Shown here one piece after another: positions 4,249 through 37,313 of a stretch of 64,000 bases of DNA; the first letter of the stretch is position 1; each line of letters begins with the position of its first letter. Below the pieces are notes generated by a model. That model was not told the DNA's origin. It was given only the letters and a program-made list of their open reading frames with translations, and made no database searches. A program made the translations under genes and the position numbers. The DNA is from Sarea resinae (lineage: Eukaryota). Location: positions 62,001-126,000 of the forward strand of contig JAPEUD010000004.1 in assembly GCA_026026165.1 (NCBI GenBank). The letters run 5' to 3'.

Positions 4249-4580
4249 ATTAACAGGGTATATAGGTAAGGCATTGATTCGGTAGAGCTACAAGTATGAA
4301 GCCTTATGATATTAGCATTTACAGGATAGAATGAGTACTGCTAATTCAGCGGATCATTGTCATTTAATACACAGTACTTAAATACTTATAACTGGTAAAA
4401 ATGCATACCAAACTTCCTTTCATTCGTTTTGCGAAAAGCCACCTAGGAGAATCAGTCAGTCAACATGACCCCTCCCATAAAAAAAACAGCCTCGCTTCTA
4501 AGCACTGTAGCCTCAAGGCCATCAAGACGACGACGGTTGGAAAGGTCGAGGAGGCGAGGAGGCGAGGAGGGCAAAAAATG

Positions 4581-4670
4581 GGGTCTGGCCGGGAATTGAA
4601 CCCGGGGCCTCTCGCAAACAGAACTTAGAGTCAACCCTAAGCGAGAATCATACCGCTAGACCACCAGACC
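4581..4670 (-). tRNA. tRNA-Pro(AGG): tRNA-Pro (anticodon AGG) with an 18-nt intron at 4617-4634
   Basis: Reverse complement reads GGTCTGG TGGTCTAGCGGTATGATT CTCGC TT AGG G [TTGACTCTAAGTTCTGTT] T GCGAG AGGCC CCGGG TTCAATT CCCGG CCAGACC C. Acceptor, anticodon and T stems pair, A and B boxes are present, and a T6 Pol III terminator follows at 4573-4578. Confidence 0.95.
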
Positions 4671-14707: not shown

Positions 14708-15384
14708 TCAATCCTCCATCTCCTTCTCGGCGCCCCCATCCGCGGCGGCGCCCGGACTCCGGCTCCGTGCCCGGCCGCCTGTTTTGCCCCTCGCGCCCTT
14801 GCCTTGTCCTTGGTTCTGTTGGCCTTTTCCTGGCGGCGGCCGTACGAAGGCGAAGTCGACTGCGATGGTCTGGTCGAGGAGCTTGGCGTTGTTGGCGCCG
14901 TCGATGGCCGCGCGGGCTTCCGAGAGCGTGGGGTATTCGATTAGTGCGTAGCCCTGATTGATCGATTAGTTAATCCCCAGGATGAGAAGACTGAAGGGAG
15001 GTGTGAAGTTGAACATTGATAGAAGCGTTAAGCGCTGCGCATGTGAAGATGCAGAAGTGGAAATGGCATTGTAACATGCCCGCTTCAGCCGGGCTTCAAA
15101 GTATGTCGTGGGAACGGATGTTTGCAAGGGGAGAAGAAGAGAGAACGGACCTTCACATAACCCGTCCTCCGATCCAGATTCATGTGTAAATTTTTGATCT
15201 CGCCGTATTCGCCGAACAGCTCGTTCAGGTCCTCTTCGCTGGCTTCTTCGTGGATGTTGGTTGCCACGATGATCCAGCCCTCGATACTGCGGACCGCGGG
15301 CGCGTTGGCCTGGGTCATCGGCGAGGCGCCGGTTGTGGTGGCGGTAGGAGCGGCAGGCTCATCGACGTCCATGGCAGTAGACAT
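14708..15384 (-). CDS. RBM8A: RNA-binding protein 8A / Y14 (exon junction complex), 2 exons
   Basis: Exon 1 [33 protein letters not shown], intron about 15150-14954, exon 2 [40 protein letters not shown]. Confidence 0.95.
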
Positions 15385-18300
15385 TTTGATGAGAGGTGAA
15401 AGGGAATGAGATGCGGAGTGTGTGGTTGGCGGCGGCGGTGGTGGTGATGGTGGTGATGGTGGATGATGAAGAGGTGGGGATTGAATAAGTCGTCAGATAG
15501 ACTCGAACGTCTGCTTTGAGCCAGAAAAGAGACGAGGGGATCCGTGGGTGTGAAGATGGAGGCAGACTCGCGTTTGATAGCGACAGCAATTCGATTCAAA
15601 AGGTGGGCGTCGCAAGTGATTTGGGAATCAAGATTGATCTTCTCGACGCGAAGCGCATGCAGCGCCCGACTCAAGATAGCCGCGTCCAGTCGCTCGCTTC
15701 GAACTTTTTGGGGTTTGAGCATGCGGCTCAACCGCTCATCCATACCAACCCCTACATCGACTGCAAATACTGCGTATAGCACATCCTGCATTGACTCTCT
15801 GCCTTTCATAATTGCAATATTGACACATGTCGATATTCGATGGGACTCAAAATAAGATCTTTCTATTGCTTCCTCGGTTCTAGAACCTAGATGCCCTGTT
15901 TTGCATGCTTATCATCGTATACGGAATCTCCTACGACTATCGGAGTACACATTTTTCTCATTGGCTATCTCAACCAATTGTAGGGCTTCATCGGCGAGGA
16001 AAATCGAGCACCGGTGTCGTCTGGGACTCAATAACTCCACCTCGTTGTCACATTCATACAGGGAAGAGATGAGATCTCTTTTGTATCGCCGGACGCAGGA
16101 GTTCCAATTGGCCCAGCAGATGCTACCCACGGATGTCGGGTCAACAGCGCGGCTAGTTTGAGCCAGTTGCTCTTTGATACAGGCACCCGTGTGGGGTAAG
16201 TGGCGCAACGTGGTGATGCCCTGGTCAAACGCAAAAGCAACGCAAGACTTGAACAGGTTCTCCTTGGAATGTGGCGTAATATGGCAGGCTGGAAGGATTC
16301 AATGGAAGTTGCGGTAGTATTGCGGTAATCGCGATAGCAACGGTATTAGATTCCCTGCTTTTTGGTTTCGTATCAGAGAGATGAGAATAAGGATCTTTGA
16401 AGATGCGCCGAAAATAGAAAGACAAGAGGGGAAAAGAATTTAATTGTAATATATATGGAATGCTTCATCTCCTCCCCCATCTGACAATAATGGCCTCTAC
16501 CCGTTACTCACACCTCTCTGCTTTGTCCCATTGGTCTGCGCATCACTGGTCATCCCGATTCCCATCTCTTCTAATCAAATCTGGCTGCTCATCTCTGCAC
16601 AAGGTGTGCTGAATGCTGTGAGTGGGAGTCTGCCGTTCAGTCCTACCAGCCTGTATTTAGAGCGGCGGACCGGGCAGCGCAAGGGGCTGGCTTATGGCGT
16701 TATGTAGGATCAAAAAGTACCGCGGTCCTGCCATCTGTGGCCAGCAAGGGACCGGATAAGTGCGGGTTTCAGACGGTGTTAGGGGCGTGAGTAGTTGCTG
16801 TAGTAGGACTTTTGTCTTTCCTACTGAAGTCCTTCCCACTGGATGCCGTTAATCATAACTTTTCAGGGGTCGTTAGCGTTCACTTTGAATATAGAAAAGC
16901 AAAACTTATCCTCACAGCGTTTTGTGACTCTTCCGCTTCTCAAGGGTCCCAGTACTCGGATTTTCCCTTCCAACCAACCGCCACCTCAGTCCCACCAATC
17001 TCTCTCTCCTCGGCCTTCTCCTGTTCTGGACCCACCAAACAGGGAGAACCACTTCGTTATTTCCTTCCCAGCGGTTGGCTTTCCACTCACGCAACTCTTA
17101 CTGTCCGTCTTCATGCTGTTGCTTGGCCCGCGCTACTTGCAGCACAAAACACGACAGAAGTCCTCGGCAGCATTGTCTTCGGCAACTCATTCGGCCGTCA
17201 GCAGCGGCGCTCCCAAATCCGTTCTCATGATCCCTCTGAATCGTCTATTGGCGGTACTGGTAACAAACGCTGCAGCTGCATCCCAATCAGCATCTCAGCT
17301 TTGGGTTCTGCGATGCCAGTGCTCGTGTTTTTGGGTTCGCCGGACGGTGGTCAAACAGCTCGAGTAGTATTCGTGGCGTTGTTTGTGGTACTCCATGGGC
17401 TCTTTGCGGGCGCGTTAAGCACCACGTGGTAGGCGATGGCAGATGAGTCGGCGGCAAAGCAGTCAGTATTGGAGACAGGATCGGTCTTCGGGCTGTTTAG
17501 CAGATGGAAGAGGCATCGGAGACGTTGTGAGCGTGCCTGAGCATTGCATTGGTGAGAGGGAAGCAAGGCAGCAGCGGAAGCGTTGCTATTGTAAACTTGG
17601 GTCATGAGACCGAGCTTGAGCCGCTCGTTAGATTTATGGGAATTTCAGCGCTGTTGATTGGATGGGCGTGGGGTCCCAAGATGCTGGTGAAAGGTGCATA
17701 TCGTTGTGGTTTCGAAATTCCCGAGTTCTAGATGGGGTGCTTGTGCTTGATATCCGGTGCCACGGATACGGTTTTGGATTGCGGCGTAGGCCTAGTTGCT
17801 AGGAAATAAAAGATTTGAGAAGCAATTATAAATGCATTATCACACCAGGGCGATGGCCATTTCTCAGGAAACACATATTGCAGAGATATTGCACGTTTGG
17901 GATTTGAAACAAAATGCGATAAGTTGGCCTGCATCGAATTATTCTGAAAAGTTGTACGGGTCTGGAAAGACAGGAGCGTGACCTCCACAGTCCACCGCGA
18001 TTGGATGTTCCTTCAAAAGAGAAAAAGAAGGGGGGTCGGCTGGTTCCCGCAAAATCTGGTTGCTCGAGCAGAGCCTCAGCTGAAGTCGGCAGCGCTGATC
18101 TTTGCTTCCTTGAGACCCCTCAAATCCTTGAAAGGTTTTCTCGAGAGGCCGGTGGCTCTGAAAGGGGTCGCCTGTAACGAAGGGTGAGAGGAAAACCAGA
18201 CGCCACGTGAGTCATCCAGAGAAACGTCATGATCCGGACCGACAGTCTGTGCCTATCTTTGGCTCTATGGCAGCGCAACTCCCACGGCCGCTAGCCGCCA

Positions 18301-19440
18301 GAGTGGAACGAGCCTCTGAGGAGACAAGGTGCGCTGACCGGGGAAGACGGGAGGACGGGGAGAACAGTCGCAACAATCATGAAGGGAGACAAGACGAAGG
18401 ATCACGGACAAGAAGTGCGATGATGGGCAAGGTGGTCACCGCAGACAGAGCAATGTGGGAATTACGAGACGACAGGACCAGGGCATAGCTTGCGTCTTTT
18501 GTCCCTACCATACCAAATGGATCTGGGGGCGGTGGACAAAAAGCGCGCTACGGTAGGGGACCGTCCTTCTGGGACGGGTACGTTCCATGGCGGCATCTAT
18601 CCGCCGTCCATCCTGGTGGGAGTGCTGCTTAATGTGTGGACTGCTGGGTGATAGGAGATGCCCAGAAGTCCACGGGTGTCAACACACCTCCACCCCTCCC
18701 CCTGGGCTTAGGTCAGCGTCCTACTCTACTCATAGTAAGGTTTGGCCGGGGAGGGTCGCCGGTTGATGTAAGATACCTGGTCAGTGGGATCTATTAAGTT
18801 TCGTACCCTGTCGAACTACTATGAGCACCGCCCGCAGTCGTTCCTGGAGGCTTCCACATGTGCCGAGAGGTACTCCGTATATACTCATAGTACGAAGTAT
18901 TCGTACTCCTTACTGTGACGCTGAGGCAAGCACTCTTGTCGTCGCGCCGGTCGCTGCCCATCAATGTCAGTTCGCCATCACACACTTCGGGTATTACCGT
19001 GCGATGCCTACCTTAGGTAAGATCTCCTTCACCGATGAAGTGCGGGCTTGCCCAAGTACCTCCAGACCACCTAGTGTGACCGGAACAGCCGCGCGCACAA
19101 GCCCGTCTCTAATGATGTTCCTGAAGACTCCGCTGAACTGTCCTTGAAGCATATCAAACTCGAAGATGATCTGCACAGCTATCCTGAACAACCTTGCGTG
19201 TTTTCTAAGATTCCATGACTGGTTCTTCCCTACCGTGGAGACAGCACGATCTCCCGCTGATACATCACCTTATGCCTTAACGATGCCTGTAGCCCAAGCG
19301 GGTCCCACTGAACGCACAGGCTTCCAAGATCGAAGCATCTTTTCAGAGTTGTTGATGTCTACTGCAATCACCAGATTGAATGGGAACGACCGCTGCTTCT
19401 GTCTGTGGTCGCTCGCTCCCTGCTTTGCAATCCATTGAGC

Positions 19441-19450
19441 TATATAAATA
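19441..19450 (+). promoter_or_regulatory. Candidate TATA box for Clr5 copy 1
   Basis: TATATAAATA about 125 nt upstream of the ATG at 19565/19571. Confidence 0.45.
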
Positions 19451-19564
19451 CTTGGCCCAAGCTACCAGTAGATTCCTGACTGCCATCTCCACGACATTGT
19501 TTCTCGAGCACAAGCTACATGTATCTCGACTATCCCGCCCATCAAAGTCCTCTGTATTATAGCC

Positions 19565-19810
19565 ATGACTATGCCTTCTTCCTTCGAGTGGGAAAGCTGG
19601 AAGAACTATATCGTATACAAGTACGTCCGGCAGAACAAAACCTTGAAGGTCGTCAGAGACGAAATCGAAGCCGAAGGGCTGCGGTATGTGACGTAAGTTC
19701 ACCATCTGTCAGTAATTGGTCTATGGGCGAAAGAAGTCTCAGCGGTATTTAGGCAATACAAACTTCAGTATCGTCTGAGAAAATGGAGAATCCGTAAGAT
19801 GAATAGATGA
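19565..19810 (+). CDS. Clr5-domain-only microprotein, copy 1 (59-61 aa, 2 exons)
   Basis: (MT)MPSSFEWESWKNYIVYKYVRQNKTLKVVRDEIEAEGLRYVT, phase-2 intron 19693-19752 (GTAAGT..TTTAG), then QYKLQYRLRKWRIRKMNR*. Fits the Clr5 pattern WE..K..I...Y......L............Y/L..RL..W...K. The branch site is weak. Confidence 0.7.
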
Positions 19811-20970
19811 CGCGCGAACGGCCCCAAGGACTGGTATCAAACCAGTAAGTATGCTTGAAACCCTTGGATCCCTTATTGACAGCTGCTGAGGCACCATTAC
19901 GCAATGCCTCTGGACTTGGATGATGGTTCGCAATGGCATGCTTGACACCGGGGGTCTACCTCATCGTCCGACTGGGGTTCTACTGGGGTTCTACTTGCTT
20001 TCGCTTCGTTTGAGGCTTTAAGGTTGCTTGCTTAGCGCCTCATGCCACAGCAGTAATCCATGACACGGCTGGATCTGAAAGCCTCCAGGCTCTATTTTGC
20101 ACTTCTCTCGTCGTTCTTTCTGTCCTTTGGGGCAATATAGCTATATTCCTTTTACTTTGCCATTTCTCCAAGTCGTCGGTCGATGAACATGGAGAACGGT
20201 GAAGATAGGATCAAGATAGCAATTTGACAAACTTTTAACCGGTGAACTTGCCGCTTGAACAGTGAGAGAACGGATGCAGAAGCAACTTGGTTGATACTCT
20301 GCGATACCTTATGATAGCTCGGCGGATGACCAATCATCGTTAACATGGCAGGGCTGGCTACCAGGACCACGGAACGGGGATGATGCTCAAATACCGATAA
20401 ATGTTGCTCGCCCGCCCCTCCTCTTCTAGAAGACTTTGGGCGATCATGGATGGATGGATGTAATTTTCCCGTTATAGCTTCGATCAATCTGAATATTTCC
20501 CATACAACCAAGGAACACGAGGGCAATAATTGCTTTCGTGTCCGACGTCTTGTGTACCTTACCTTCCATACTTTGCACGGTCCTCGGAATCAAGCTTCGT
20601 ACCTTGACGGCGGACATGGGTGTTTGTGTCCGGCTATTCCCGCGAGCGGCGACGCCGGATCGCCCCGAATGGTCTGCGTTAAGCGCTTCCCTAAATCTCG
20701 CGAGCCATCAATCTCGATCTATGGTTATGGCTGGCCAAACTCTAAGTCTGCGTACCTTACTGTTACGGTATTTGGCGTACTATCAACACCACCGCCAGGT
20801 ACGCCGTGGCTACGGCACCACGACCGCTATATGTACCTAGGCAGTTAGTAAGCTTACAGAATTCTCTGTACTCCAGAGACTTTCTCTACGGTATCTGAGA
20901 TTTGCTGGACCTCGCGTTGAGGTGTTAGGCCATTTTGCTTGCTCCGAGGATTGTCGCGATGGAGGCTGAT

Positions 20971-21007
20971 GGGGATCGGGGGTGGGGGGAAGGGGGGGCA
21001 AGGGGGG
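20971..21007 (+). other. G-quadruplex-forming motif
   Basis: GGGG-ATC-GGGGG-T-GGGGGG-AA-GGGGGGG-CAA-GGGGGG: five G-tracts with 1-3 nt loops. Confidence 0.6.
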
Positions 21008-24000
21008 ATTGTACCTACCTTAACCGTAGATCCAGAATTGTTCCCCGATAATCAACCACCTCAGTTCGCCAACCGTTCGTTTCATCTAGAGGGCTGATCA
21101 TTGGGGGCGGTCACAAAGCTACGGCATGACAAAAATACTCCGTAGCTTGCTGTCAATACAATAAATTCGAACGGCGGGCTGCACCGTCGTGGCGTTTGAA
21201 CATACTAAAAACCCCCTTATCTGGAAGAAAGTCGTAGCGTCCTCGACGGACGAGCCGTGAGATGACGGACCGTACCTGGCTTGGCACACCAAGCACGCGT
21301 CGTGTAGATCAATTCAAGTAATTCTGCGCAGCTAGTATTGGATCATCGCTTCCAAGGCAAAGATCTCATCGGATCAGACAATCTTTGCGTCAATCAGGGC
21401 TTACATCTGCAGCGAGCGAGGAGCCAACGCAGGTGTCTCTGCCTAGCTGCCCTTGGTCTATGAGGAATACCTTCCCTTGTGGCTTTTCAGGTCGGTCGGA
21501 GCCCGAGGATGGAAAAGGGGGTCGCTGACGTGTTGCTCTATTCTGCAGGCAAGCTATCCCGTGGGGTAATCTTGCCAAAAACGAGAGGTTCAGGCGGTGA
21601 GGGCCCGCTGAGACCTGTCGGCGTACCCATCGGGGATGAAGTCAATCGAATGAAAGCCTCTAGGCAAGGATTATTAGTGCCGTGCTATTAGCTCTCAGCT
21701 GGATACATGATCATCCCGACGTTCGTGAGTAGTGCACACACCGTAAGACTTTTGTGGATGGTGGTTGAAGCTCCAAGCCAAGGAAGGCAATCGTAGTTAC
21801 TGTCAGAGATCATGCGTGGAAGGGAGGTGGAAGGGAGGTGGGAGGGAGCGGCGTTGTCCATCGTTACGAACTACCATCAGGATTCAAGAGGAAGCTGGGA
21901 TGTTGGAATCCACTAGAGCTACAAGGCCTGGGACAGGGAAAATACCTTAGGCTCGAAGAGGTAAAAAGCCACTTTGTGCCCTCGACGTACTCCTTAGGGG
22001 TTGTTCATCTCGCAATGCATATCTGGCGACCCATTGCCGCGCACCAGCGACTACAGACTGAGGTGTACGGGTACCGTTGGTGGGTTTGATGATGAGCCCG
22101 AGATGACCTCGTGGCATGGTATATTCAGTACCTGAAAGACTTTGATTTTACTGCGTACAGCAGACATCATGAACAAGGGGTCTTCAGCCACTGCAAGCCT
22201 CCTGCCAAGGTCTCCCGGATTCGTGTCGAAGACTCGAAGTATTTCCTCCAAGGCCGCATTGACCACTGAATGGGAGGCCGACAGGGCTACGAGATTGGCG
22301 GACACTCAGTGGTAGTATTACACACAGAGTCATCTTTAACCTCGGAACCCTGTTGTTTGGCTGTGATGTAGTCTTCTGTGGAGAGGAAACGAAAGAGTCT
22401 TGACGGTGTTGATGCTAGCACATGCTTGGTCGTCGAGCAAGAAACGTGACCGATGAGGGAATCCTCCCTAGCACATTACCTTGCCCAATGTAGGTACGTG
22501 GCGGTAGTACCTTTGCCAGATATGGATGCTAGAGTACGGGAGTATTAACGACTTCTTCTCCAGAATAATGCAGAGAGTTGGGATGAACCGCATAGACGGA
22601 TAGCTCGTCGTTCTGTGGATCCGTTACTACGCCGCAAGGCCGAATGAGGCACGCCAAGCATTGTAGCGCAGGGTTTCTCAGCTGGCACCCTCGTCCGGAA
22701 CCAACCTTCCTCGTATCTCAAATAACCTCTCAGCTTGGTAATGCAATGACTCCAAGTCGAAGCAGTCAGACTATACTGCGCAGTATGGTCTCAAGCCATC
22801 AAATATGATTGCTCGATCTAGGAAAACGGGGCTCACCCCCTCTGAACGTATCCCAATAGTGAGTTCGGAATTCGTTATTCCGCATCGATGCCGGCGGGGG
22901 GCCTTGCAGAAGTATCTCTTACACGATAGGTACTTGGTGTGAACTTGAAATTGCGATCCATTAATTCTACCTGTAGCGTTTACTCAGGACGGTAACATAC
23001 CTGGGAATGGTTCTACCCTTCTTATCTGCGAAGGAGAGAAACATTCTGGAAGTCTCCCGCGGCTAAGGATTCTCATCGTGATTCAGTCCTGATCAACAAA
23101 TACGAGGGCCCATTCTGTGCTCGATCAATTCTTCATGGTTCCTCTGTTTCAGGATCTTTTGGCGCTCACTCGGTTCACATCGCTAGGTACCTTACCTTAG
23201 TAGGCAGTGACGAGAGTCGTGAGTGGCGCGATCTGCCTTGCTCGAGAGGTGAGCATACTCCGTACACCGAAATAGTTTGGTCCCCGCAGAAACAGTCCCC
23301 CGTATCGCGCGAAGTGGGGGCGGCAATATTCGGCACTGTTGTTGCGATCTTCAGATGCTATCGTATGAATTGACGAGGTGCCCTCTCTCGGAGCTACCGC
23401 AGCTGAAACAGAGGCCTCGGGGACGTGTCCACCATATTCGTACAATTATACTGGGCTGAGTCCCGAATGAGGAGAAAGTAGCGCGGATTGTCACTCTTGT
23501 CGAACGGCCAGAATGTCAATCTAAGCACTTGACGGACGCGCTGTTGGATCAGGCTGGTTTCAGCCTTTCAGGATTTTACAGATTGGCCCTGAGCTGCACC
23601 AGCCAGAAGGAATACACTGTATCGGTGTTCCTGCAGTTTATCGAGTTCATATTCCGTGGAGTAGTAGTACATCCAACATGGAAATCGAGGACAAGGAATG
23701 CCACACGAAGCCATCTCCGAAGGATCTGCAATTCTTGGTGACGGAGTAGGAGACTCTTCCGTCCGATCGACAGCCTGACCTGGTAACGCGGGTAGGCCAC
23801 GTGCTGTGCAGGCTAGATCCTTATGCTGCCAAGTACTCTGTAGAACGGGTATCCCAGTACCGGCCGCAGACTACCTTCAGATTGGCTCCAACTGTCTTTC
23901 GGCATCTGTCAACACGGAGCACTCGGGCTCCCATTTCCGACCTCACATTCGAAGTGCGTCGAACACATCTGAAAGCTGTAGCTGTGGATAGCAGAATGCC

Positions 24001-24873
24001 CCATTTTGCTTAGCGCCAGTCGAGGACTCGAAGTTGTCACTGACTCTTATTTCCGGAGGAGCTCAGAGTCCTCTTACCATTCTCATTCACGTTCTAATCT
24101 TATTGATCCCATCCGTACCAGACGGCCAAGACTATCTCTCCACTTCTCAGTTACCGCTGAAAATCTGAAGCTTCCGCCATGGAACTAAGGCGGATTGCGT
24201 TTGAAAGCACATCATTGCCTGCACTGAGGCATGACGGGCATCGACGGACCACAGATCGACACCACTTGACTTGACTTTCGATGCTCTTCCGTCCCCTCAC
24301 TCTAGCTTCCCTCCTTCCTTGATTTAGCTTTGGCAGGGTTGTTGATCTACGTATCAAAGATCAGCATTAGGGAAATGCGCAATTACCAGTGCTACTGAGC
24401 TCCGGCAAGGCGTAATCATCACCAGGCAACTTCGTACTTCTTACATCTCCTTCGTTGATACCCTTTCCTGCTACCATTGGTCGGCAGAAACGACTGTTAC
24501 CTGCTTGTTGATCTGCTCCAGAGACGTCCTCAAATCTTCATTTACTCTACGGCCAACGCCTTTCGCTAGTCACGAATTCTGAACATTCCACTCAGCTGAT
24601 GCAATCTTTCGTTTGGCATTATTGTTTCCATGCCGCCAGGAAAAGGATCGGCTTGGCCACCTCGTCCTTCCTGACCAGCAGATCACGAGCCGCAGTCCCT
24701 CGTGACGATCCCTGTACATCCAATATGATATATCGCTCTGCTCAGCGCCCGAAGCCTTGTCGCCAGTACAGACTCATGGCTAAGCTTGCCTAGCTATAAG
24801 ATCAATTCTCGCCGAGCATCATCTCTAGATTGGCGATTGCTGAATCTCTCTTTTGGCTTCATCGAAAATCGGA

Positions 24874-24882
24874 CTATATAAG
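24874..24882 (+). promoter_or_regulatory. Candidate TATA box for Clr5 copy 2
   Basis: TATATAAG about 110-150 nt upstream of the in-frame ATGs at 24985 and 25027. Confidence 0.4.
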
Positions 24883-25026
24883 CTTGGTCATCGAACAAGC
24901 AGCGTTCCACCTTCGGTAGCTTGGCTCGAGCCCTCTCACTCTCGGAGCCTCGTTGGCCTCCCCAACCACAAGCGCCCTTCCCGAATGTCTTCAAAGCTGG
25001 GCCTAACATCCAACTCCGACGTTGAC

Positions 25027-25250
25027 ATGCCCACCTCTTCAGAATGGGAAGATTGGAAGGAGTTCATACGTCATAGATATGTCACTGAGAACATGACTCT
25101 CAAGGCTATCAGAGACGAATTGGCGACATTGGGGTTTGAAGTAACGTAAGTTAACAAACAAAGCCGATAGACCTCAACTAACGTGTCAACTAAAGGTTCC
25201 CTATGCTTCAATACCGGGTTAACAAAGCCTGGGGAATACGGAAGACATGA
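25027..25250 (+). CDS. Clr5-domain-only microprotein, copy 2 (57 aa, or 71 aa from ATG 24985; 2 exons)
   Basis: MPTSSEWEDWKEFIRHRYVTENMTLKAIRDELATLGFEVT, phase-2 intron 25146-25195 (GTAAGT..ACTAAC..AAAG), then FPMLQYRVNKAWGIRKT*. Confidence 0.75.
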
Positions 25251-28205
25251 TGGCCAAAGAACCTGATATCATTGGCAAGCGGATCTTCGCCAATACAAGC
25301 AAGTAGCATGCTCCAGATGTTGGCTCTCCCGATGGATCAGCACTGTACCGATACTTGCACGTATGACAATGAATCTTCAGGCTATACTTCTAGGGGCTGA
25401 CGGTTTGAAGTAGCGTCGTTATCTTCCGCGCCATGGGCGCCCATCACTTGATGGATTTCCCTTGCTGTCTTCTAATAAGTCTTTTCGGACGAGGACATTG
25501 GGCTAAAGCTTTTGTAATAAGCAGAGGGGTTTCCTTTATCAGTTGGGCGTTGGAGCATAGAATGGCAATTCTCTGTTGTGTTTCATATTTAAATAATATT
25601 CAAATAACATTAATATCGGCGAGTCTGCCAGCGACAGCTCTCTTTACCGGCTTCTTAGCTCTTGAGCCAGGCCAAGAATAGATACAAGGGCCTTCAACCT
25701 CGACTTCGCTTTCAATATGGTGTGGACGGGTAACCCGGAGAAGGACCATTGATCTGGTATTTGCAGCGGGAAGGAAACTACGGGGAAGTACTATCAATCG
25801 CAAATTCAGTAGCGAGAAGGCACCGGATATTATTCATTGCAACTCCGTCAGTGTGAAAGGGGTGAATGAGGATGACGGATGCAGCCTACTGATTGCAGAA
25901 TCTGACGCAATATTGTTGCTCTAGGCAAGAAAAGTCTCGAGAAAATGCAGTGGCAGAATTGAGAGAGAGAGAGCGAGAATAAGTGCGATCGATGGCGCCG
26001 ATGCTCGTTTTGTCGTTGTACGTTGGAAATACCCGATTCGCCATTTTTACCTCGTTGTCAGATACCTCCACCTAACCAAGTATAAATATTCATTCGGTAA
26101 TTCAGTAAGTAGGAGGTAAGTTGCCACGCAGTCAGGCACATTAGCGTCATTAGCTACGTCCTTCTTACTCCAAGCAAGCTTTTGAGGTAATAGATCTTCG
26201 TGCTCTACTCGCATGTTTCTTCTTCGCTGCAATGGTTAGGTCCGTGGCTTAGCTCCTGCAAGAGCACGCCGAGCTGGAGCCTGGCGGAAGAAGGCGCCCT
26301 TCCCGACCATACAGCACAACTCTTCCGAGACGCCCTTTTGGTTGCCTCGGGGATGGGTGCCTATCAGATTGCAAATTCACAGGCATGCAATCGTTCTCAG
26401 CTTTAATTTTATTTCCTGCCGCACTCATCAACTTTAGTGTCCTGCTCCGCTGAGATGACACGACCCTAGTACTATCAATCTCAAACATAATAATTCTCGG
26501 ATTTCAGACACGACTGTTACTTTGGGGCAGACATGGGGCTTGTTGGCGTCTCATGATTTCATGAGGAGCAGTACAGTTGACGCACTGGGCGTATTGTATC
26601 TCGTTCTACTACGCCGATCGAAGAAAGGACAAAACTCGGGAGCTTTGACCCCCTCTCGACGTATCCTGAGAAAGGACAAAAATCGATCAGACGATATTAC
26701 TGCCCGAGAGTGGGCTTTCACCGCTCAAAAGGTAGCCCTAGCTACAATGCAACAGCGATCTCGGCCTCGATCTCGGCCTGCTTCTCGGTCTTAGGAGCTA
26801 TGCCCTCGTATGTCTGGCTGCCAAGATTTGATATCCAGAAGAGAATTAGTGATGACAGGCATGTGCCCATCGTGGAAATGGCAATTCTGTATTATAAAGT
26901 ATGTACAATAGCCCGCCACCCGCGATGAATCAATGGGTGACTAGGTATCTACCGTTCGCTGCAGGGAAGACAGCTGTTGGCATCTGATGAACTACCAGAG
27001 AGATGCTTGGGCCGTGGGACTGGGACCTGATCATTATTGTTCGACTTCTGACGGAACGCCATTGGCAGTGGCCCTGAATTTTCCTTTGGACACGTTCGAA
27101 TTTTTGAGGCTTGCGTGCACTCTTGAATTTGACGTCGTGCGTTGTGCATGACACCAGTACGGCCATGAAACAGGCTGTCGATCGTCCAATCAAACGGCCA
27201 GCTCTCTCTAGTTTGGTGTGGCATCTTTCATACTCATTGGAGAATTGGATGGGCTGAGGGTCTGAGCAAAAGAATGCTATTCGGCGTTTACTGAGAGCTG
27301 CATTGGTGAAAGGCTGTGCTGTGTTTCATGTCGCAACTCACACATTTCATTTCGCGCCCTCGTGCGGCACAGCTGCACAGCTACACAGCCGTCCCGACCA
27401 CCAGGCAACGATGAGAGGGCCGGCACGACCCAGTACCGCCGTCACAAGTCCACTAAACCCTGTCTGAGATTTCCGCAAACAGATTTGGGAAGCGTCGAAA
27501 GGAGATTATTCTGTCTTGTTCTGTGCTCATTAGCCTTTAGCAGGGCCGTGGGGCTTGCAGAACAAGCCACCAGCAACATTGCTCTCACCTAGCTACATAC
27601 GTAAGAAGCAGGTTGACTTCCAATTCTATACAGGGGTAGAAGCAGGCTGCTATGCAAGGTACTCAACCATTATTGTTGCGGTGACTAGGTCATTTGATAG
27701 TCTCTTGAGTCTTCAGCCTCGATTCAGAGGCCAGCGTCAAGAGAGTCGGTTGCCTTGGTCGCCTAGATTGCCTCGTAGAACTTCTGCCTTGTCTCTAAGA
27801 GCAGAAGAGAATGTCTGTCACTGCTACCTACCTGCCTACCTGCCTTTCTACTTTACTCACTGGTCTATTTTACTCACTGCTCTACTGGGACGGTCCTGCC
27901 GGCAAGTCGACACCGCATTCATCCCTGTCTTTGTCTCCATAATTTGACCATCTCGAAATTTGCACGCTGGATTGACAGCCACATTGTTCATTTTGTACGG
28001 TGTTCACTACTACGAGCAACCAGTGCCAACAGTCAACGTATTTCTCATATGAGCCTTCAGCCATGTCATAATCATGGCATGTGTTTATAAGGAGAACGTA
28101 CTGTTATCAAAATGTCTTTCACGTCCCTAGGAGTCAACGAATTGGCTGGCTGCCTGGAGACCAATACCCAACCCGACCACTTAGGGTTACACACCTTTTC
28201 TGGCT

Positions 28206-28518
28206 ATGGTCCTTAATTCAGCCGAGGAAGCTGAGCTCGAGGAGCTGAAGGAGACAGTGACCTACTTGTATCTCACGACGAGCTTAAGGGAGACCAAAGA
28301 TAGACTGGCTGCCAGGGGTGTATTGGTATCGTACGTCTTTGCACTTCAAGATGCCATCTTAAGAAGCTCTGCTGACGCAAACTTTTAGCAAAAGGCAACT
28401 CAAGTATCGACTCAATAAAAAGTGGAAGGTGTTGAAACGGCCGCAAGGCCCTCCACAAGTTATAGATCCGGCGACCGAGGCTGGGCTGCAGCATCAGGGC
28501 CAGGGACATGATTCGTGA
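28206..28518 (+). CDS. Clr5-domain protein, copy 3 (84 aa minimal model; may extend by further splicing to about 29197)
   Basis: MVLNSAEEAELEELKETVTYLYLTTSLRETKDRLAARGVLVS, phase-2 intron 28331-28388 (GTACGT..GCTGAC..TTTAG), then KRQLKYRLNKKWKVLKRPQG..HDS*. A GTGAGT donor overlaps the stop codon. Confidence 0.65.
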
Positions 28519-31064
28519 GTAGAGACGACGGAACACCACCATTGGCTTTAGACTGATAGATGAATTTACGTTGTCAAAGATCTCGGGCTACAAGTGTTTC
28601 AGACGATAGCTCCTTGGGAGAAGAAGAACAGTGTGTCTATTCCTTCAGCTTGGCCCTGCTTCTGACTAATAGCTGCAGTCCTCCTTCCTTCCCGGGCCTT
28701 TCGCCATCTTTGCAACAAGAAGAGAAGTATGGGGGGACCCGCACGAGACCTAAGGTATTGGGAATAAGCACTGATTAATCTCGGCAGTACTCCTAGTATA
28801 AGCAACGCGTATGGGGCCATTGAGTTACCTACTGTCAACCAGTAAGTGTAGCCAACTCTCTCGAATTTTATCACTGTTAAAAAGTTGCAGAGAAACCTCA
28901 AACTCGCTCGGATCATGGCCTTCTTTCGGCAGTGATGGTCATAGACCTCTTATGATGGAGTCACTCAACTACAATGACTATCACGGCGGATACGAGCCCT
29001 ATTTCCCCAGTCCTATACCGGCTACGAACTACAATGTTGGACTTGATGAGTCAATCACTCAGGAAAACATCATGATTGATCCCGAATTGAGATTGCTTGA
29101 TCAAATGTTTCCTCGCCTTCCAGCCTCGGAGCCTGTGAGCACAGAACAGGACAGACCGGGCTCGAAGGATGTCAATTGCTCTAGCAGTCGCGCCTAGTAA
29201 GCAGATTTCTCCTTTGAAAAAGCCTTGAAGTATAGTCCTAATGAATTTTAATGTCCTAGACTCTAGCCTGGACGACGTCACTGCCAGTGCGCCAACGGTC
29301 GTATCAGCCCATCCATGCCTTGGCATTTGACTAAATGTCCTTCAAAATCAATGCTCCTACTACTATTTCATCTGTGGGATACTGTTACAGGCCCTATCGG
29401 ATCAATCATCTTTCCACTCGTTTGCGTCCATTTACACAGATGTTTTCGGCCTACAATTCGCAAGGCATTTGGGATTAATAGCAACATCTATAGATGAGAC
29501 TATAGAGACTTGTATCTTTCTTGCCTTCGCTGTTTACAGTGGCCCATGTTATTCATTTCTATACCGACCTAATCCTGTCACTTAAACGTTTTCTTTATCA
29601 TACAATGCAAGACTTATTAGACATTCAAGCTAAGGAAATTTCACCGTTTTAAAATGAAGGAGCAGCGACTAGACTGTCGTCGGCCAAGTGTTCTCAACTA
29701 CTATCCTAGAGAAGTTGGCTAGACCTTAGTAAAATTATAAAGATAAGTTTAGTTCTTGGTACTCAATTGCGGTTTTTAGCTTATTATATATTTGGCGCAC
29801 TAGAAAAAGAAATGTTATTGGAACAAGAATTTATAAGTTATGCTGGCGGCACTTTGCTAGACATCTGTTAGTTTGCTGGCTTAGCGCGCGCCTAGATCTC
29901 TTATTGCTGCCTATCTTGCAAGTGAGTTTCTATTGCGTGTCTACCGTTGTAGGATATGCACAGCTCTTTTATTAGGCAGCTTATTCTTATCAAATGTTCA
30001 GAGGCATACGTTGATAGCTGAAAGTTTGCGATGTAAAGTACGTCTACTAAAATGCAGAGATTTCTCTGCTTTGGGAGATTTTGATTTTTCTGTATGGCCT
30101 CCTTTCCTACAAACATCTCTTCCACCAAGTGTCAGCATGCCTGGGGTTGCTTTCGGATGCTATATACGGTAAGCTTGCATTTGCATTTCGAGGAAGTGGA
30201 CCCTAGCTTTCCACAAGATGATTAATCTGTGGGTGTTTCTGAACCTCCTAACAAAGATGGTGCAAGGATTCCAGCCACCCCCAGCGGGCTACCAGATTGC
30301 GCGGAAAGGCAGATAGATGGAATTCCAATGACCTGGATGCCAATACGGTTAGCGCGATGCAGCCAGATGGCCCCCAACGGCAAACGATCGGTCGCGCAGT
30401 GCACGTTCGGCAGGCAGGAGGTATGCTGCATCGCTGTAGACTGTCTGTCTTCCTGTTCCAGGCGTTTCGGCTGATGCATGATGCTGATCTCCATCTGTTG
30501 GGAGAGGAACACATGAGATGCAGCGGTCCCGCGTGCAAGGTTGGGAGAATGACAACTGACGGATTGATGTTAGGAACGGTCTCACCTGCAAGAGTCTTCT
30601 TTCGGCCGTGTTGAAGTCGTGCCAGTCAGACCATATATACAAGCGTTCTCAAAATCTGGTATAGGGGGGAGAAGGACAGGCATTCAGAGCCAAATGAAAG
30701 TCTGAGACGTATTGATTGCTTTCGGCGCCTAAGATCCCTGTGTGGGGAGTCAGCTATCGCGTTGACCAAGCACCGCAGTATTCTATCGACTACCTACCTG
30801 CCTTCTGTATGAAGGAGTTGGTAATTCAGACATTGGCGGCACCACTAGGACCAAAGTGGACCGGACCCACTGGATTTCGACTCTTAAAGACCATGCGCAT
30901 GAGACCCGCGGCAGACGCGCGACATGTCCCATGGGCGTGACAGAATTGCTTATGATTCGATCAGGGCTCCGTTGGCACTCAACATTGCCTCTTACAGTAG
31001 CGTGTGATGGGGATTGCTTGGGACCTTCCACTAAGCCTACTCTAGCCGAATCGAGATCTATTGC

Positions 31065-31108
31065 GCCCTGCGGGCCCTGCGGGCCCTGCGGGCCCTGCGG
31101 GCCCTGCG
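31065..31108. repeat. 9-bp minisatellite (GCCCTGCGG), about 5 copies
   Basis: Tandem copies read directly from the sequence. Confidence 0.9.
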
Positions 31109-32500
31109 TCCGCCTCTTGGGCACGGCACGGCACGACAACAGTGCTCTTCTCTGGGATCTTAGGTTCTGCTGGACACTCTAATAAAGAGACGGCGGATAC
31201 TAGTGCGGGCATCGAGAATTGAGACCCTACTCATCTTGGCTTTTCGTCATGTCCCAAGCTGTCGGGTTTTATGCGTCTCGACTCTCGACCCGCGGGGCGG
31301 CAGAGACGGAAACCAGGGTCCTCTGGCATCCACATCTGAATCGCCGAGCCAGCGCCCCCTTTCCACCCGATTGAAAGATGTCAGGTCCAGAAACGTCGTG
31401 TCGGAGGTTCCCGAAGCCCCATGGTAGGAACCCACGCCTCATTCCCGGAGATGTGGTCTCCTACCATATATCCAGTCCGTTATCGATATCACTCTCGGCG
31501 GAGAAATGAGAGTCCTCTTTCCTCAATGGGACTGATCATACGGCGTTACGCGAAGAGCTTGCCGTACTCCGAGATTCTCCAAATAGTGCCCCCGTCAGCA
31601 AGCCATGCTACGGCCGAGCATGGGCGAGCTGCCTTGAGCCATTCCACAAGGTGTTTCTCATCAATCCCAGCCAGCTGGAAATAATGGACAGCATTAGCGC
31701 CCTCCCCTCCCTCAGGCGTGCATTCGATCCAACATGGCGGGGTCTTTTCGGGACTGACCGCCTTGTTACATCTTATGCCGATTGACCCAGGCATTTGGCA
31801 TGGCCAGTAGTGACGTAGCGGTGTAGCCTGCAAGTCCTCTCAGATCACCATGGGCCGTTCACAATTGCTCCTATGGTTTTATCTTACATGGCATCATGCT
31901 CTGCCGAATGATGAGCACGGTCTGTTTCTACTGTCGCGAGGGGGGCTTCATTTGACTATACACATGCATCGTCGATGACGATTCGCGAGTAGTCGGCGCT
32001 GTGAATGAGCAGATGTGCCATATAGGAGCGATGATTCCATCAGAACGGCACAGTAAAGTCTGGAAGGTGATAAAGATTCCTCAGCCGGTCTGGAAGTGCG
32101 TCGTCCATCTTCTTCACAGTCTTCCAGCAGCAGTGTGCCTGACATGGATCCTCCGTACCTACCTTACCTTACGCTGTCTCCCCTCCCACGGGTGAAGTAG
32201 GGCAAGTCCATGTACCTCAGATAGCTGGTAGGTCGGGCGATTACTCCAGAGTCGAATGCACGGCCATTGCAATCGTTCAGCATGATACCTAAGGGAGTAG
32301 CCGAATTACATACTATGTAGTAGTCCCTTCGACAGCGGCACTCTGGCTCTCGGTACGCAGACCCAGACCCAGACCCAGACCGAGCGCCTCACCGATTAAA
32401 TCCGAGATCTATCCATGGCTCAGGTATGTGCCTACCAGACCCCACGGTAAATGACGATGCTATTACGACCAGGGACTATGGCAGATGCAGATGATGACCT

Positions 32501-32501
<1 letters not shown>

Positions 32502-32556
<55 letters not shown>
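32502..32556. repeat. (GAT)n microsatellite, about 18 copies
   Basis: Read directly from the sequence. Confidence 0.95.
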
Positions 32557-32559
<3 letters not shown>

Positions 32560-33940
32560 CGATGGGCGGGATCCATGGGTGGAGCGTCTCAGGCAAAGAT
32601 GCCGTCGCGTCCACTCGAGTTGGTGCTCCACCGACCGAGGACCTTATCTTGGGTCTTCGTACCTGAGGTAGTGTACTGGTGTACGAAGTGACAAGGCGAT
32701 GCAACGTCCTGCTCGACGCCCTGGACGGTCAAGCGTCCATGTCTGGGCTGGCGGATTGCGCCAACGGGCGCCTGATTATTCCCGACATGGCCAAACCGTG
32801 CATGGCTCTGGCTCTGGCTCTGGCTCTGCCTCATTTCCCGCCCACGATGATCGACCACACCCAGCGCGAAGGATCGTTCCTGGAAGGAGGCATCGAGCGA
32901 AGGATCCATGAATGTCTGCCTACCTTGCCTACCGCATCGAGTTGGCCGGGGCCAATCCCTCGCAGTAGCTTCGCATCCTCGCTCTTTCGCATCGGAGACC
33001 CGGCGTTAAGATAATAATGAGGCGACCGACTCCAGCTGCTACGCTGTACGGAGTACAGTAGCCAGACTACGGGGGATCCCCGTCCCTGTCCCTTCTGCGT
33101 AGAGTACGGGACCGACTGGGAGTGTGTGGTGGGGGTCAGCTCAGCGCGTACTCCGACTCCACTGCTCTCCACCCCTCTCCGCTCTCCACTCTCTTACCAA
33201 GCTCGCACGGGCTGCTAGCATTCCGCCCGTCTAGTTTGTCCTTTTCGTACATTGTTACTCACGACGCCTCTTCGCCCATCGTGAGTGGATAGAAGAGGCT
33301 CCAGCCAGTCTGGATATATTACTCCACCCTTCGCGACCATGCTACTGCTTACTCGTGCGACTGCCTGCTGTATACCCATCCCAGAAACCATATCGTCGGG
33401 TCCTTTCCAGCTGTCTCGGATTCTCCCAACTCCATATGTCTGGGTCTTCGCACGCGGCCCTGTGAGGTGGTCCCAGCGCATAGTCATCTCTCATCTTCCC
33501 CTCTATCTTTGTGTCTCCTCGCTTCACGACATCTGGTTTGGTGCGACGTAGCTACCGTTCAGCTGGGAGGGCCAGGACGCCAAGCTGGGAACGCCACGAA
33601 GAGAAGATCGAAAGATCAAGATCCGGTGCCGCGGTGCTGGGTGTTGGGTGGTTCCCGCCGAGGAAAGCTGCATAAATCAGGCCTCCAGTCCAACTCGGGC
33701 AGACGGACCGCCGCGGGGGCAAACACGGTGCGAGCCAGCCTAAGCAGGTCGACTCTTTTGCCCTGGTGGAGGCACGACTCAACGAGCGGTGTGGTGCAGA
33801 GTGCACGGCAACGCAAGCGGGACCACCTTTGCCCTTTTTTTGCTACTTATTTTTTGCCTTGCCCGCATTATTCAGTCCTCATGCTTTGATTGGGCCATTC
33901 TTCTGCAAATACGAGTATCCGAGCGAGTCTGAGCGTCAGC

Positions 33941-35130
33941 ATGGTGGAACGGATCGACGAGGACGAATGGGAAGGGCGGAAGGAGGTCATTCGACGTATG
34001 TACGTCGAGGAGGACAGGAAGCTGTCAGCGATAATGAAAGTGTTGGCGGCGCCGCCATCGTTCAATCCGACGTGAGATATTCCATTCTCTTTGTTTGATA
34101 TGGGTATTCCGGCATGACATTTGGCACGCGGCGTGCACACCTTGACTGATGCTGATATGCTTCCTATGCGCTTTCCAGTGTGTCGCAATACAAGACTCGT
34201 TTGAGACATTGGGGCTTCAAAAAGGATAGGGCCGGCGCGGATGGCATGACGAATTCCGAAAAAGCTAAAGAGCGAAAGCATGCACCGCCTATTCGACACA
34301 ATGGTCACGGAGAGATAGCGGGCAGCTGTTCTCAACAGCCAACACTCGACTCCTACAAAGAGTGAGATTCGACATCCTCATGAGAGCTGTGATGGAAGGC
34401 TGACCGATTCTCGCATAACAGCACCGACTCCTCTACTACCACAAACTACAGCGTCGGCAATGAGATCGCAGGCAACAGTACTATAGACGCAGCGGCATCC
34501 TTCTCCAACCTCCAAACTGACACGGATATCTCGAGCGTTTACGACCCTATGCTTCCGCAGCCCTCGCCATCACCTCAACAGATACCCTCCGACCATCTCA
34601 CAATCATTCCGACGTCCTCTCTACTACTCTACCCCTCATCGACGGCCTCCCACTCACTATCAGCGGCTGCATCGATCATGTCCACGTCCACAAACGCAAC
34701 AACCTCAACTATAACCGCTCCTGCAACCGCAACCACACTTTCCCCTTCCGGACTGACCTCTCCGTCGACTATAGCCGCGACCACAACTCCAACAACGAAC
34801 CCCATAGACGCAATCAATACCACACAACAGCATCCCGCATCACCTTCAGCGCCGCCTCCACCGAATCCATGCCCAGCCATAACCATCATTCCGGATCAGA
34901 CCATTGACCCCGACGTCGACTCTAGCCCCACCAGATTGGAAGCCGAAGCCAAAGCCGAAGCCGAAGTACATGAGTGCGTCATCAAACGCATGAAAGCCAC
35001 GTACAAATCTCGCTATGACGTCCCGCATCCATCGGCCAATAAAGCCAGGGTTCACAAACCCGTGTGCATCCATCGCGCGAGGAAGAATATGCCGAATCCC
35101 CACCCAGGCGTGCATGCTATGGGGAATTAA
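33941..35130 (+). CDS. Clr5-domain protein, copy 4 (about 340 aa, 3 exons, Ser/Thr/Pro-rich tail)
   Basis: MVERIDEDEWEGRKEVIRRMYVEEDRKLSAIMKVLAAPPSFNPT, phase-2 intron 34072-34178, then VSQYKTRLRHWGFKK. A second intron at 34362-34421 splices in frame into ORF 34549-35130. The 3' end is uncertain. Confidence 0.8.
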
Positions 35131-36230
35131 ACCAGAGAGGGAAGACGCGGATATAGGGTAGGCTTAGGTATTGTCTGGCTAGGAGGTAATTGCGAAGGAA
35201 TGCCCAGATGCCTTTGGCGAGTGGGGTGGACTGAGGCCATCGGTCACCGAAGGGATGGATTGGTAGACGACGACAACGGCGCTGGAAGGAGTTGCACTTC
35301 GATGCTGTGCGGGCTCCTAACGTCAGCTCACATCCATCCTCGAGGTGTTGATGGGAGCAGTCGACCGACCCTACGTCCGCCGTCTTCTCTCCCTTCATCA
35401 AGCATGCCGGAGTCACTTTCATCATGCATCCCATACTACCTCTTCCGCCACACACGTCCGACGTCGCCAGACCTGAACATTCCAACTGGTCACTCTCAGC
35501 ACTTTCTGTGCACACGCCTCTGGTCTTTTTCCCTTGCCTGTCCCACGATCTGGAAGAGCGTGCTGGAAGCGCGGCTCATGCGCCTCCAGGGACCACTGAA
35601 GGGGCAGGCCTTTAAACTTTTTTCTCCAGGTCTCAATGCCTCAACAGAGACTGTTCTCTTTATTTCCATGCCATTATAAGAGCAAGTGAGCGAGCGAGCA
35701 AGCGCTTCCGGAATTTCTGTCGCCTTGTCATAGATATTTTTTTTCTCTTCTCTAAGCGAGCGAGCCCGGAGGTCCAGTCTTTGGCGGGCATTTGTGAAAG
35801 TTTTAATTTTTATTAGCGATGGGCGATGGGCGATGAGCGATGGATGGGCCAAGGATGGATGGATAGATGGATAGATGAAACGGACGAACCACGGAAGATC
35901 CACGGATGGATCCAGTCAAGGATGACTTTAATAGGTAATCAGCGCACTGCTCCGCGCACCGCGCACCGCGCACCACCCGGCAGACCGCACATGTTTTGGG
36001 AAATGTCTTTTGAAAGTAATGTGTCTCAGATGTGCTTATTTTTTTGGACATGTTGTTATTACTCTATACCCTTCACGCAGCTGATCTCCTCGCTTATCGG
36101 GGATAATACATTGATATTGATATTATTGAGATCGATCTTGGTAAGGAAGAGATGGAGAGGATGATATTTGCCGTGTGCCGCCGTGAAGGAACAATGTATC
36201 TGATGTCGAAGTGGACGACCGCCCTGCGTT

Positions 36231-36305
36231 AGACGCGAGACAGACAGACAGAGACAGACAGAGACAGAGAGAGACAGAGAGAGAGAAAGAGAGAGAGAAG
36301 ACAGA
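36231..36305. repeat. Compound GACA/GA microsatellite
   Basis: Read directly from the sequence. A (TCAA)n run follows at about 36564-36587. Confidence 0.85.
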
Positions 36306-37313
36306 GGAACAAAACAAACGACTGAGAAAAAGGGGGTTGCAGTCTTGCGGTCTTAGGGTCTTGTAGATTTCTTTCTTTACTTCTTTTCTTTCTTTGTTCC
36401 CTTCGATCTTTCTTCCTCGCTCGCCAGGCCCTGCCCTGGTCGTTGATAGGGTTATACAATAGAGATCTCTACATCCGACAATCCTACCACCCTGGAAGAA
36501 ATCAACCAATCCACCTAATTCTAAAAAGATCCTTGAACCCTCAAACGAGTTCAAGAACAGGAAATCAATCAATCAATCAATCAATCAAACAACCAGCTAA
36601 TCAAATATCAACAACGTTCCCGAAACGAAATCAATTAATCGATGTAGTAACGCCCCGCTTTGCCCTGCCCACTGCTCTGCTTTTCTAATCCTACAAGTAC
36701 CTACCTATCTACCCACGTGGGATCCTCCGAGGAAGTCAATAAGCGCGTTCAAACAGGACAGACAGACTTTCAAAGGAGCGCGGGAAAAAATCTTAAGCAA
36801 GGAAGAGTTGAAAGGAACTTTCTCTCTTAGAGTGGTGGCTTTATCTCTCGAGACGTACTAGATAGGAGGGAAGAAAGTAGACTATAGAGCTTGCCTCCCC
36901 GTAACCGTTCTAGGTGCGTCATGCATGTCTTATCCTCAAATCTCAGGGAGATGATCATAATACTTTAGAAGCTTTCCCTCCCTCTGTCACGAAAGGAGTA
37001 ATATAGATGAAAAATCTCTTGATTCTCTGACTAATTTCTTCGCGTTCCAAGACACTATCTAGAGTAGATTTGTTTTCATGGCCATTCCACCTATTCTTCT
37101 AGTATTGCTTCCGTAATTGGCATCACTTTCATTTTACCCTTTTCTGCATTGTTCGAAGCGCTGGCTTGCGCATATGGTCTTCGTCCATGTATCGACAGAT
37201 GATGACAACCACGATCTCGAGTCTCTGCACGGGCTATTGAAACTCTCCGATGAGACGCGCATCGGCATGAAAGACGCAAACGACGCCTCTCCTCGTAGCA
37301 CATCTACCCCAGC

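Follow-up and report, generated by a model that had tools for sequence, protein, structure and literature searches.

A stretch of 64,000 nt from Sarea resinae (assembly GCA_026026165.1, contig JAPEUD010000004.1, positions 62,001 to 126,000 of the forward strand; the whole stretch is called the window here and positions are counted from its first letter) carries four loci that splice to Clr5-like products. Judged from the sequence, they plausibly make up a small gene family in which old, constrained, tail-less copies are clustered beside a tailed one, and one of the tail-less copies, copy 2, is already in NCBI. The Clr5 domain (PF14420) is named after Schizosaccharomyces pombe Clr5, a protein that is placed, in passages citing the 2011 work of Hansen and colleagues, together with the deacetylase Clr6 in one pathway of chromatin silencing. 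All four loci lie on the plus strand, spaced 3-6 kb apart, and each has an ATG, a GT..AG first intron in phase 2 and a Clr5-like spliced product. We give an even chance to the description of the whole as a same-strand cluster of four paralogous Clr5-domain genes, in which copies 1 and 2 consist of the domain (the head) only, copy 3 is divergent and copy 4 has a head plus a tail. That copies 1 and 2 are functional genes expressed as stand-alone small proteins seems to us slightly favored.

The case for a functional head-only pair comes from the comparison of copies 1 and 2. Their amino-acid identity is 51-54%, in line with the value of about 50% that had been estimated by eye, and a maximum-likelihood tree on the exon-1 part of the domain (66 rows, 39 columns; weakly resolved) joins them as sisters with support of 99/84. 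Over 56 aligned codons (identity 54%), the proportion of differing synonymous sites (pS) was 0.91, i.e., saturated, and that of nonsynonymous sites (pN) was 0.29. Codon positions 1+2 were identical at 78/112 sites as opposed to 20/56 at position 3 (Fisher p 3.2e-5), with a shuffled expectation of 0.26±0.06 for position 3. A self-blastn of the window detected no DNA-level similarity of the copies and their flanks to one another, and introns and flanks, when aligned globally, resemble random sequence. Because pS is saturated, pN is low and DNA-level similarity is gone, the pair is old, with amino-acid change held back over most of the path that separates the copies. Free drift of one lineage would alone lift pN well above the observed value, and we therefore infer protein-level constraint on both copies for most of their history since duplication. 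The contrast of pS with pN speaks for prolonged purifying selection on the head-only form. From the end of the domain to the stop there are 4 codons in copy 1 and 2 codons in copy 2. With both sisters stopping so close to the domain, the simplest reading is that their common ancestor already had the head-only form, which would then be as old as the pair itself.

Reading of the sequence and scripted splicing confirmed the coordinates, strand, splice sites and phases given for the four loci in the initial annotation, and also its product sizes: 61 (59) aa for copy 1, 57 aa for copy 2 (71 aa as annotated), 84 aa for copy 3 and 340 aa for copy 4. Exon 1 measures 128, 119, 125 and 131 nt in copies 1-4, which puts every first intron in phase 2, and the intron interrupts the domain at the same point in all four copies, again as proposed. 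The features are:

19442-19451, plus strand: TATA-like box TATATAAATA, lying ~115 nt before the start codon of copy 1; read by eye, suggestive only
19565-19692, plus strand: copy 1 exon 1, 42 codons + 2 nt, first two Clr5 helices
19693-19752, plus strand: copy 1 intron, 60 nt, phase 2, GTAAGT..TTTAG
19753-19810, plus strand: copy 1 exon 2, TGA stop at 19808-19810; product 61 aa (59 aa if translated from the second ATG)
24985-25145, plus strand: copy 2 exon 1, start annotated at 24985 (ATG); the N-terminus of copy 1 lines up with the second ATG, at 25027
25146-25195, plus strand: copy 2 intron, 50 nt, phase 2, GTAAGT..CTAAAG, CTAAC branch site; the same in the NCBI model
25196-25250, plus strand: copy 2 exon 2, TGA stop at 25248-25250; product 57 aa (71 aa with the annotated start)
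28206-28330, plus strand: copy 3 exon 1, divergent Clr5-like, first conserved W replaced by L
28331-28388, plus strand: copy 3 intron, 58 nt, phase 2, GTACGT..TTTTAG, CTGAC branch site
28389-28518, plus strand: copy 3 exon 2, TGA at 28516-28518; product 84 aa
33941-34071, plus strand: copy 4 exon 1, first two Clr5 helices
34072-34178, plus strand: copy 4 intron 1, 107 nt, phase 2, GTGAGA..TTCCAG
34179-34361, plus strand: copy 4 exon 2, third Clr5 helix and basic linker
34362-34421, plus strand: copy 4 intron 2, 60 nt, GTGAGA..TAACAG
34422-35130, plus strand: copy 4 exon 3, S/T/P-rich low-complexity tail, basic C-terminus, TAA stop; product 340 aa

Copy 1 has no in-frame ATG from the preceding stop, at 19469, to its start at 19565. 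Copy 4 has an N-terminal Clr5 head followed by a low-complexity tail of 280 aa; of the donor/acceptor pairs tried, only that of its intron 2 leaves a frame open for more than 300 codons, and no Pfam family matched the exon 3 tail. A pyrimidine-rich tract, read by eye, lies ahead of copy 4 at 33840-33860.

The Clr5 domain normally heads proteins of 225-1023 aa, and copies 1 and/or 2 could accordingly be just the first two exons of longer genes, or alternative isoforms, with downstream exons that are poorly conserved. Clr5 tails are often of low complexity and invisible to homology searches, the copy 4 tail being an example. Copy 1 contains a good-looking GTAAGA at 19794 inside exon 2, a possible alternative donor that speaks against the 61-aa model and could reach a 139-codon frame at 20430. 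To do so, however, it needs a 636-nt intron and trims the domain end, and the frame reached is non-protein-like, matches no Pfam family and has a codon score of -0.064, which is non-coding (on this codon-usage measure, trained on the clear genes of the window, real coding pieces average 0.215 and the longest chance open reading frames (ORFs) score -0.06 to -0.07). In copy 2 the only GT sites between domain and stop are GTTCCC and GTTAAC, neither of them a plausible donor, and the NCBI model ends at that stop. Downstream of copies 1-3, tblastn with copy 4 and six longer homologues gave no tail relics, and no Pfam domain downstream of the copies passed the cut-off. It would be an unlikely coincidence for both sister copies to stop 2-4 codons past the domain. 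We consider such longer genes very improbable and retain the head-only models for copies 1 and 2. Copy 3 may have a longer product, since a GTGAGT donor at 28515 overlaps its stop; candidate extensions reach ~150-207 aa. A 131-codon frame on the plus strand 3' of copy 3 (28802-29194), reachable from this donor, reads as a plausible disordered region, with an ambiguous codon score of 0.007 and no Pfam match.

The identity of the domain was examined by Pfam scans of separate contiguous exons, with a gathering cut-off of 22.3 bits for PF14420. Exon 1 alone gave 24.4 bits for copy 1 (E 3.2e-5), 32.5 bits for copy 2 and 35.5 bits for copy 4 (E 1.1e-8), and copy 4 exon 2 matched profile positions 41-54 with 15.7 bits. 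The copy 2 product also carries a precomputed PF14420 assignment. Copies 1, 2 and 4 are thus members of the Clr5 domain family, as the initial annotation had assigned them, and for copy 3 the assignment fell short of the threshold (12.7 bits). An independent hidden Markov model (HMM), built from 38 external Clr5 fragments and zero rows from the window, was run over the 2004 six-frame ORFs of at least 20 aa in the window. Its top four hits were the four loci, with E 3.3e-15, 1e-13 (copy 4), 9.8e-12 (copy 1) and 5.8e-4 (copy 3, 17.1 bits); copy 4 exon 2 followed at E 0.35 and all remaining ORFs had E>5. The window holds exactly four copies, all on the plus strand, of which copy 3 is the weak one.

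We also checked the core residues, i.e., W, I, Y, L and F of helices 1-2 plus the third-helix pattern Q-Y...W-G..K. In Clr5 alignments of 41 and 71 rows, W21, I28, Y32, L39 and F51 are invariant or nearly so, and all five are kept in copies 2 and 4. Copy 3 has lost the conserved W (L instead) and has V for I. With a Pfam E-value of 0.15 for exon 1 and an unmatched exon 2, tblastn matches to the other copies at just E 0.48-0.85, and the longest branch in the tree (2.24) at a position that is not placed, copy 3 could be a chance open frame with a Clr5-like pattern, in which case the array would have three members. Against this, it ranks fourth of the 2004 ORFs with the external HMM, hhalign aligned it to the exon-1 profile with a probability of 76.6% (E 2.1e-5), and its codon score of 0.162 lies in the top 1.8%. 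Furthermore, its phase-2 intron sits exactly at the family site and has a canonical CTGAC branch point, and the locus shares the strand of copies 2 and 4 and lies between them. A chance frame is therefore unlikely in our view, and copy 3 is a probable, divergent member of the Clr5 family.

Searches for relatives led mostly back to copy 2. When the four exon-1 peptides were used as queries against 5.8 billion protein clusters, with the search limited to proteins of 21-76 aa, the single match was P0001, which is identical at every residue to the spliced product of copy 2 from the upstream ATG at 24985. P0001 is NCBI KAI9838850.1 ('MAG: hypothetical protein M1819_004057 [Sarea resinae]'), 71 aa long with the same intron and stop as copy 2; it is encoded on a contig of 663,728 bp, starts 14 codons upstream of the ATG chosen in the initial annotation and is annotated as hypothetical only. 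The idea that these genes are hidden and missed by ORF-length filters does not hold for copy 2, which NCBI already lists as a PF14420 protein. For copies 1, 3 and 4 we found no counterpart in the protein collections searched. In an exhaustive HMMER search of 1.84 billion representatives, P0001 alone scored above 50 bits and the next hit had 44, although copy 1 could hide in the 50% cluster of P0001. Metagenome scans with the copy 2 product and with the copy 1 exon-1 frame found zero encoded relatives, and a search for longer homologues (77-2000 aa, E<=0.01), itself weak, passed 0/1655 candidates.

Short Clr5 proteins were searched between 20 and 244 aa. Two of the 35 matches are NCBI-annotated, namely copy 2 and a 225-aa Cordyceps protein, and the others, of Logan/JGI/ENA origin, are ORF fragments called without splicing. 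The short 'Clr5' clusters of the ESM Atlas (51-67 aa) were considered as a domain-only class and rejected: they are mostly exon-1 fragments, and because the short matches are unspliced ORF fragments such clusters give no evidence for a domain-only class. Longer proteins include P0014 (719 aa) and ESM Atlas clusters of 481, 574 and 1023 aa, and Clr5-domain proteins of 537 aa and 621 aa appear in passages of PMC7608984 and bioRxiv 10.1101/721753. These examples agree with the earlier statement that Clr5 is usually the N-terminal head of larger proteins. The head is also multiplied inside a gene, as P0012 (a JGI record of 290 aa) has three tandem Clr5 heads in one protein.

The initial annotation had taken the common intron position as a sign of local duplication, which the relatives do not bear out. 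Among 71 fetched relatives, 63 match a simple helix 1-2 pattern and 38 of these 63 stop exactly at the intron site, because unspliced ORF calls end at a phase-2 GTAAGT donor (xxG followed by TAA). Most other pattern-matching relatives run past the site into unrelated residues, and a properly spliced third helix is found only in P0001, P0012, P0014 and P0056. Judging from these relatives, the phase-2 intron between helices 2 and 3 is a feature of the whole Clr5 family, a habit of the family as seen here rather than a formal criterion of membership. Being common across the family, its position says nothing about local duplication.

Local duplication must thus be judged from the tree. The sister relationship of copies 1 and 2 shows it for this pair. 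Copy 4 joins, with weak support, a widespread subgroup to which the Cordyceps protein belongs. In approximately unbiased (AU) tests, a clade of copies 1+2+4 was not rejected (p 0.497) and neither was a clade of all four copies (p 0.511); in the latter test the tree under constraint beat that of the free search by 1.43 log-likelihood units. The proposed local origin of the array therefore stands for copies 1 and 2, and on a three- or four-copy clade the tests are neutral (p-AU 0.50 and 0.51).

The loci are located in a region that had been called a gene desert, and in the sense of recognizable domains this ~21-kb desert is real. Among 149 stop-to-stop ORFs of at least 60 aa on both strands of 18162-36858, solely the Clr5 ORFs passed the Pfam cut-off. 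The nearest flanking domains are an RRM ORF at 15088-15492 and malic enzyme at 37317-38692, both on the minus strand. Both sides are gene-dense, with 6-phosphogluconate dehydrogenase, anthrone oxygenase, GST, MFS, purine/cytosine permease, amine oxidase and the RRM ORF on the left, and malic enzyme, F-box, MFS, hydrolase, SDR and NmrA on the right. Within 16300-37300 (~21 kb), the four Clr5 loci are the sole Pfam-recognizable domains on either strand. The longest other ORFs of the desert are non-coding by codon usage. Transposon relics were rejected as filling (RVT/DDE/rve Pfam matches = 0), as was AT-rich decay of the type caused by repeat-induced point mutation (RIP), with a GC content of 0.42-0.57 throughout. 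Scans of 15.5-37.5 kb found no Rfam family and no tRNA, and the tandem repeats in it are trivial microsatellites only, among which a perfect (ATG)19 repeat at 32501-32557 is overlapped by open frames that read poly-D or poly-I.

Outside this region, the sole internal DNA similarity of the window is an imperfect tandem repeat at 46018-46652, with units of ~120-240 nt and 71-94% identity, which overlaps open frames at 45744-46226 (plus strand) and 46140-46523 (minus strand). At 4580-4670 on the minus strand, ARAGORN reported an odd 'tRNA-???' with the four-base anticodon tagg, probably an intron-containing tRNA seen under bacterial settings, or a false call.

To describe the head, the copy 2 product was modeled with AlphaFold2 (AF2). 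A first model showed two confident helices, its alignment being polluted by residues from intron read-through. With the cleaned alignment, three helices were predicted (18-34, 39-49 and 55-66; predicted local distance difference test, pLDDT, 79.3; predicted template modeling score, pTM, 0.59). In an exhaustive VIA-align search with this model, 9 chains reached Z>=5 and no chain reached Z>=8, and matches at Z<8 may reflect a mere common helical arrangement. The list consists mostly of DNA-binding helix-turn-helix (HTH), winged-helix, Myb and transposase N-terminal domains at Z 4.2-5.7. Its neighbors include PadR-like 3elk (Z 5.6, root-mean-square deviation (rmsd) 2.2 over 52 residues), ArgR 3ere (5.5) and GcrA 5yiu (5.3, rmsd 2.0 over 49 residues), and lower down IstA 8b4h (4.9), c-Myb repeat 1mbg (4.7) and Tc3 1u78 (4.4). 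The separate model in the ESM Atlas had as neighbors the heads of the 481-1023-aa Clr5 proteins and, with TM 0.58-0.65, the N-termini of IS21/rve/HTH_21 proteins. A search of PDB by sequence and profile found no relative (best E 0.5, a ribosomal protein). A homodimer prediction for two chains of copy 2 residues 13-71 scored 0.00, but as the alignment was unused it has no weight either way. The models make an HTH-like nucleic-acid or chromatin-binding module a lead, not a result.

A number of these observations weigh against copies 1 and 2 being functional, target-binding small proteins. The selection signal covers the whole path from copy 1 to copy 2 and is compatible with recent loss of function in either. 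In addition to its alternative donor, copy 1 has an intron without a clean branch site, less canonical than those of copies 2 and 3, and L at the conserved F. The codon scores of copies 2 and 4 are middling, 0.10 and 0.07-0.105 (top 6-8% of the 171 non-Clr5 ORFs of the stretch; copy 4 exon 3, 0.071). KAI9838850.1 is a gene-finder model, not expression evidence, and orthologues were not found, the exhaustive profile search above 44 bits giving copy 2 only and the two metagenome scans being empty. The fold matches are weak, in a Z range that any small helical bundle can reach, and Foldseek against PDB returned nothing at E<=1e-3 for the copy 2 model (best E 1.2). Copy 3 has a sub-threshold Pfam score and has lost the conserved W.

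Several of the same points would fit a reading of copies 1-3 as dead or dying remnants, duplicates cut down from a longer Clr5 gene in a gene-poor stretch that is itself decaying, with frames that are open only because they are short. The copies sit in ~21 kb without another recognizable gene, genome annotators called 1/3 of the small copies, and neither profile nor metagenome searches produced orthologues. Copy 3 lacks the conserved W and does not reach the Pfam cut-off, copy 1 combines a poor branch site with the F-to-L change, and by our own arithmetic the chance of a 60-codon frame staying open is ~5%. Decay is, on the other hand, hard to match with synonymous sites that are saturated between copies 1 and 2 at a pN of 0.29, and with the excess of identity at codon positions 1+2 over position 3. 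ATG, donor, acceptor and frame are kept in 4/4 copies, and the codon usage is coding-like, most clearly in copies 1 and 3 (0.159 and 0.162, in the top 1.8% of the 171 ORFs). Tail relics, whether of the six longer homologues or of copy 4, were not seen downstream. We therefore regard remnants as a rather unlikely explanation, and expressed stand-alone proteins as the better account of copies 1 and 2.

If copies 1 and 2 are stand-alone Clr5 heads, and if the head is, as its model suggests, a three-helix, helix-turn-helix-like binding module, a possible mechanism can be outlined. A tail-less head would occupy the target, be it DNA/chromatin or a partner, of tailed Clr5 proteins such as copy 4. 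As it would bring no effector part, it could damp or tune Clr5-type silencing or transcription control. This tuning by target occupancy is speculative and we assign it a low probability. Lower still is our confidence in the full proposal that lineage-specific heads, namely copies 1 and 2 and perhaps copy 3, are maintained by selection as antagonists or tuners of tailed Clr5 chromatin factors, beside a copy 4 of the target type.

The Clr5 domain is widespread in ascomycetes and almost unstudied outside S. pombe, and a full-text literature search on 'Clr5 domain' gave nothing on mechanism. An old, constrained head-only pair suggests that the 55-residue head may have a function of its own, and the head-only copies offer a minimal construct for asking what the Clr5 domain binds. 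Three of the four genes are apparently absent from the public protein set, an example of how short two-exon genes slip past annotation. If the small copies do modulate the long ones, regulation of the microProtein type, rare in fungi, would be at work here and would add a further layer to silencing in a filamentous ascomycete.

Compared with the Clr5 proteins of other Ascomycota, copies 1, 2 and 4 contain the same domain by HMM, with the same W, I, Y, L and F positions and the same phase-2 intron. Copy 4 (340 aa) also has their usual head-plus-tail layout. This N-terminal position in a larger protein is not found in copies 1 and 2, and it is the typical architecture of the family rather than a condition of membership. 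The known proteins are tailed, with 225-719 aa in the spliced examples P0056, P0012 and P0014 and 481-1023 aa in the Atlas, whereas copies 1 and 2 are tail-less at 57-71 aa. With HTH, Myb and winged-helix domains, including the transposase N-termini of IS21 (IstA), Tc3 and Mos1, the copy 2 model shares the three-helix arrangement; there is no sequence relationship, and the resemblance is one of shape, not of membership.

A further comparison can be made with microProteins, which PMC9638782 and PMC4807768 describe as small (<20 kDa), single-domain proteins related to a domain of larger multi-domain proteins. Copies 1 and 2 resemble the microProteins of plants and animals (e.g., miP1a/b acting on CONSTANS) in their size of 57-71 aa, in having a single domain and in having larger relatives, among them the adjoining copy 4. 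MicroProteins sequester their targets by a protein-protein interaction domain, which binds the larger relatives in non-productive complexes; the Clr5 head is not known to have an interaction partner. Because the predicted model of the head looks like a three-helix module of the DNA-binding type, competition for a target site would be at least as likely for the Clr5 head as sequestration.

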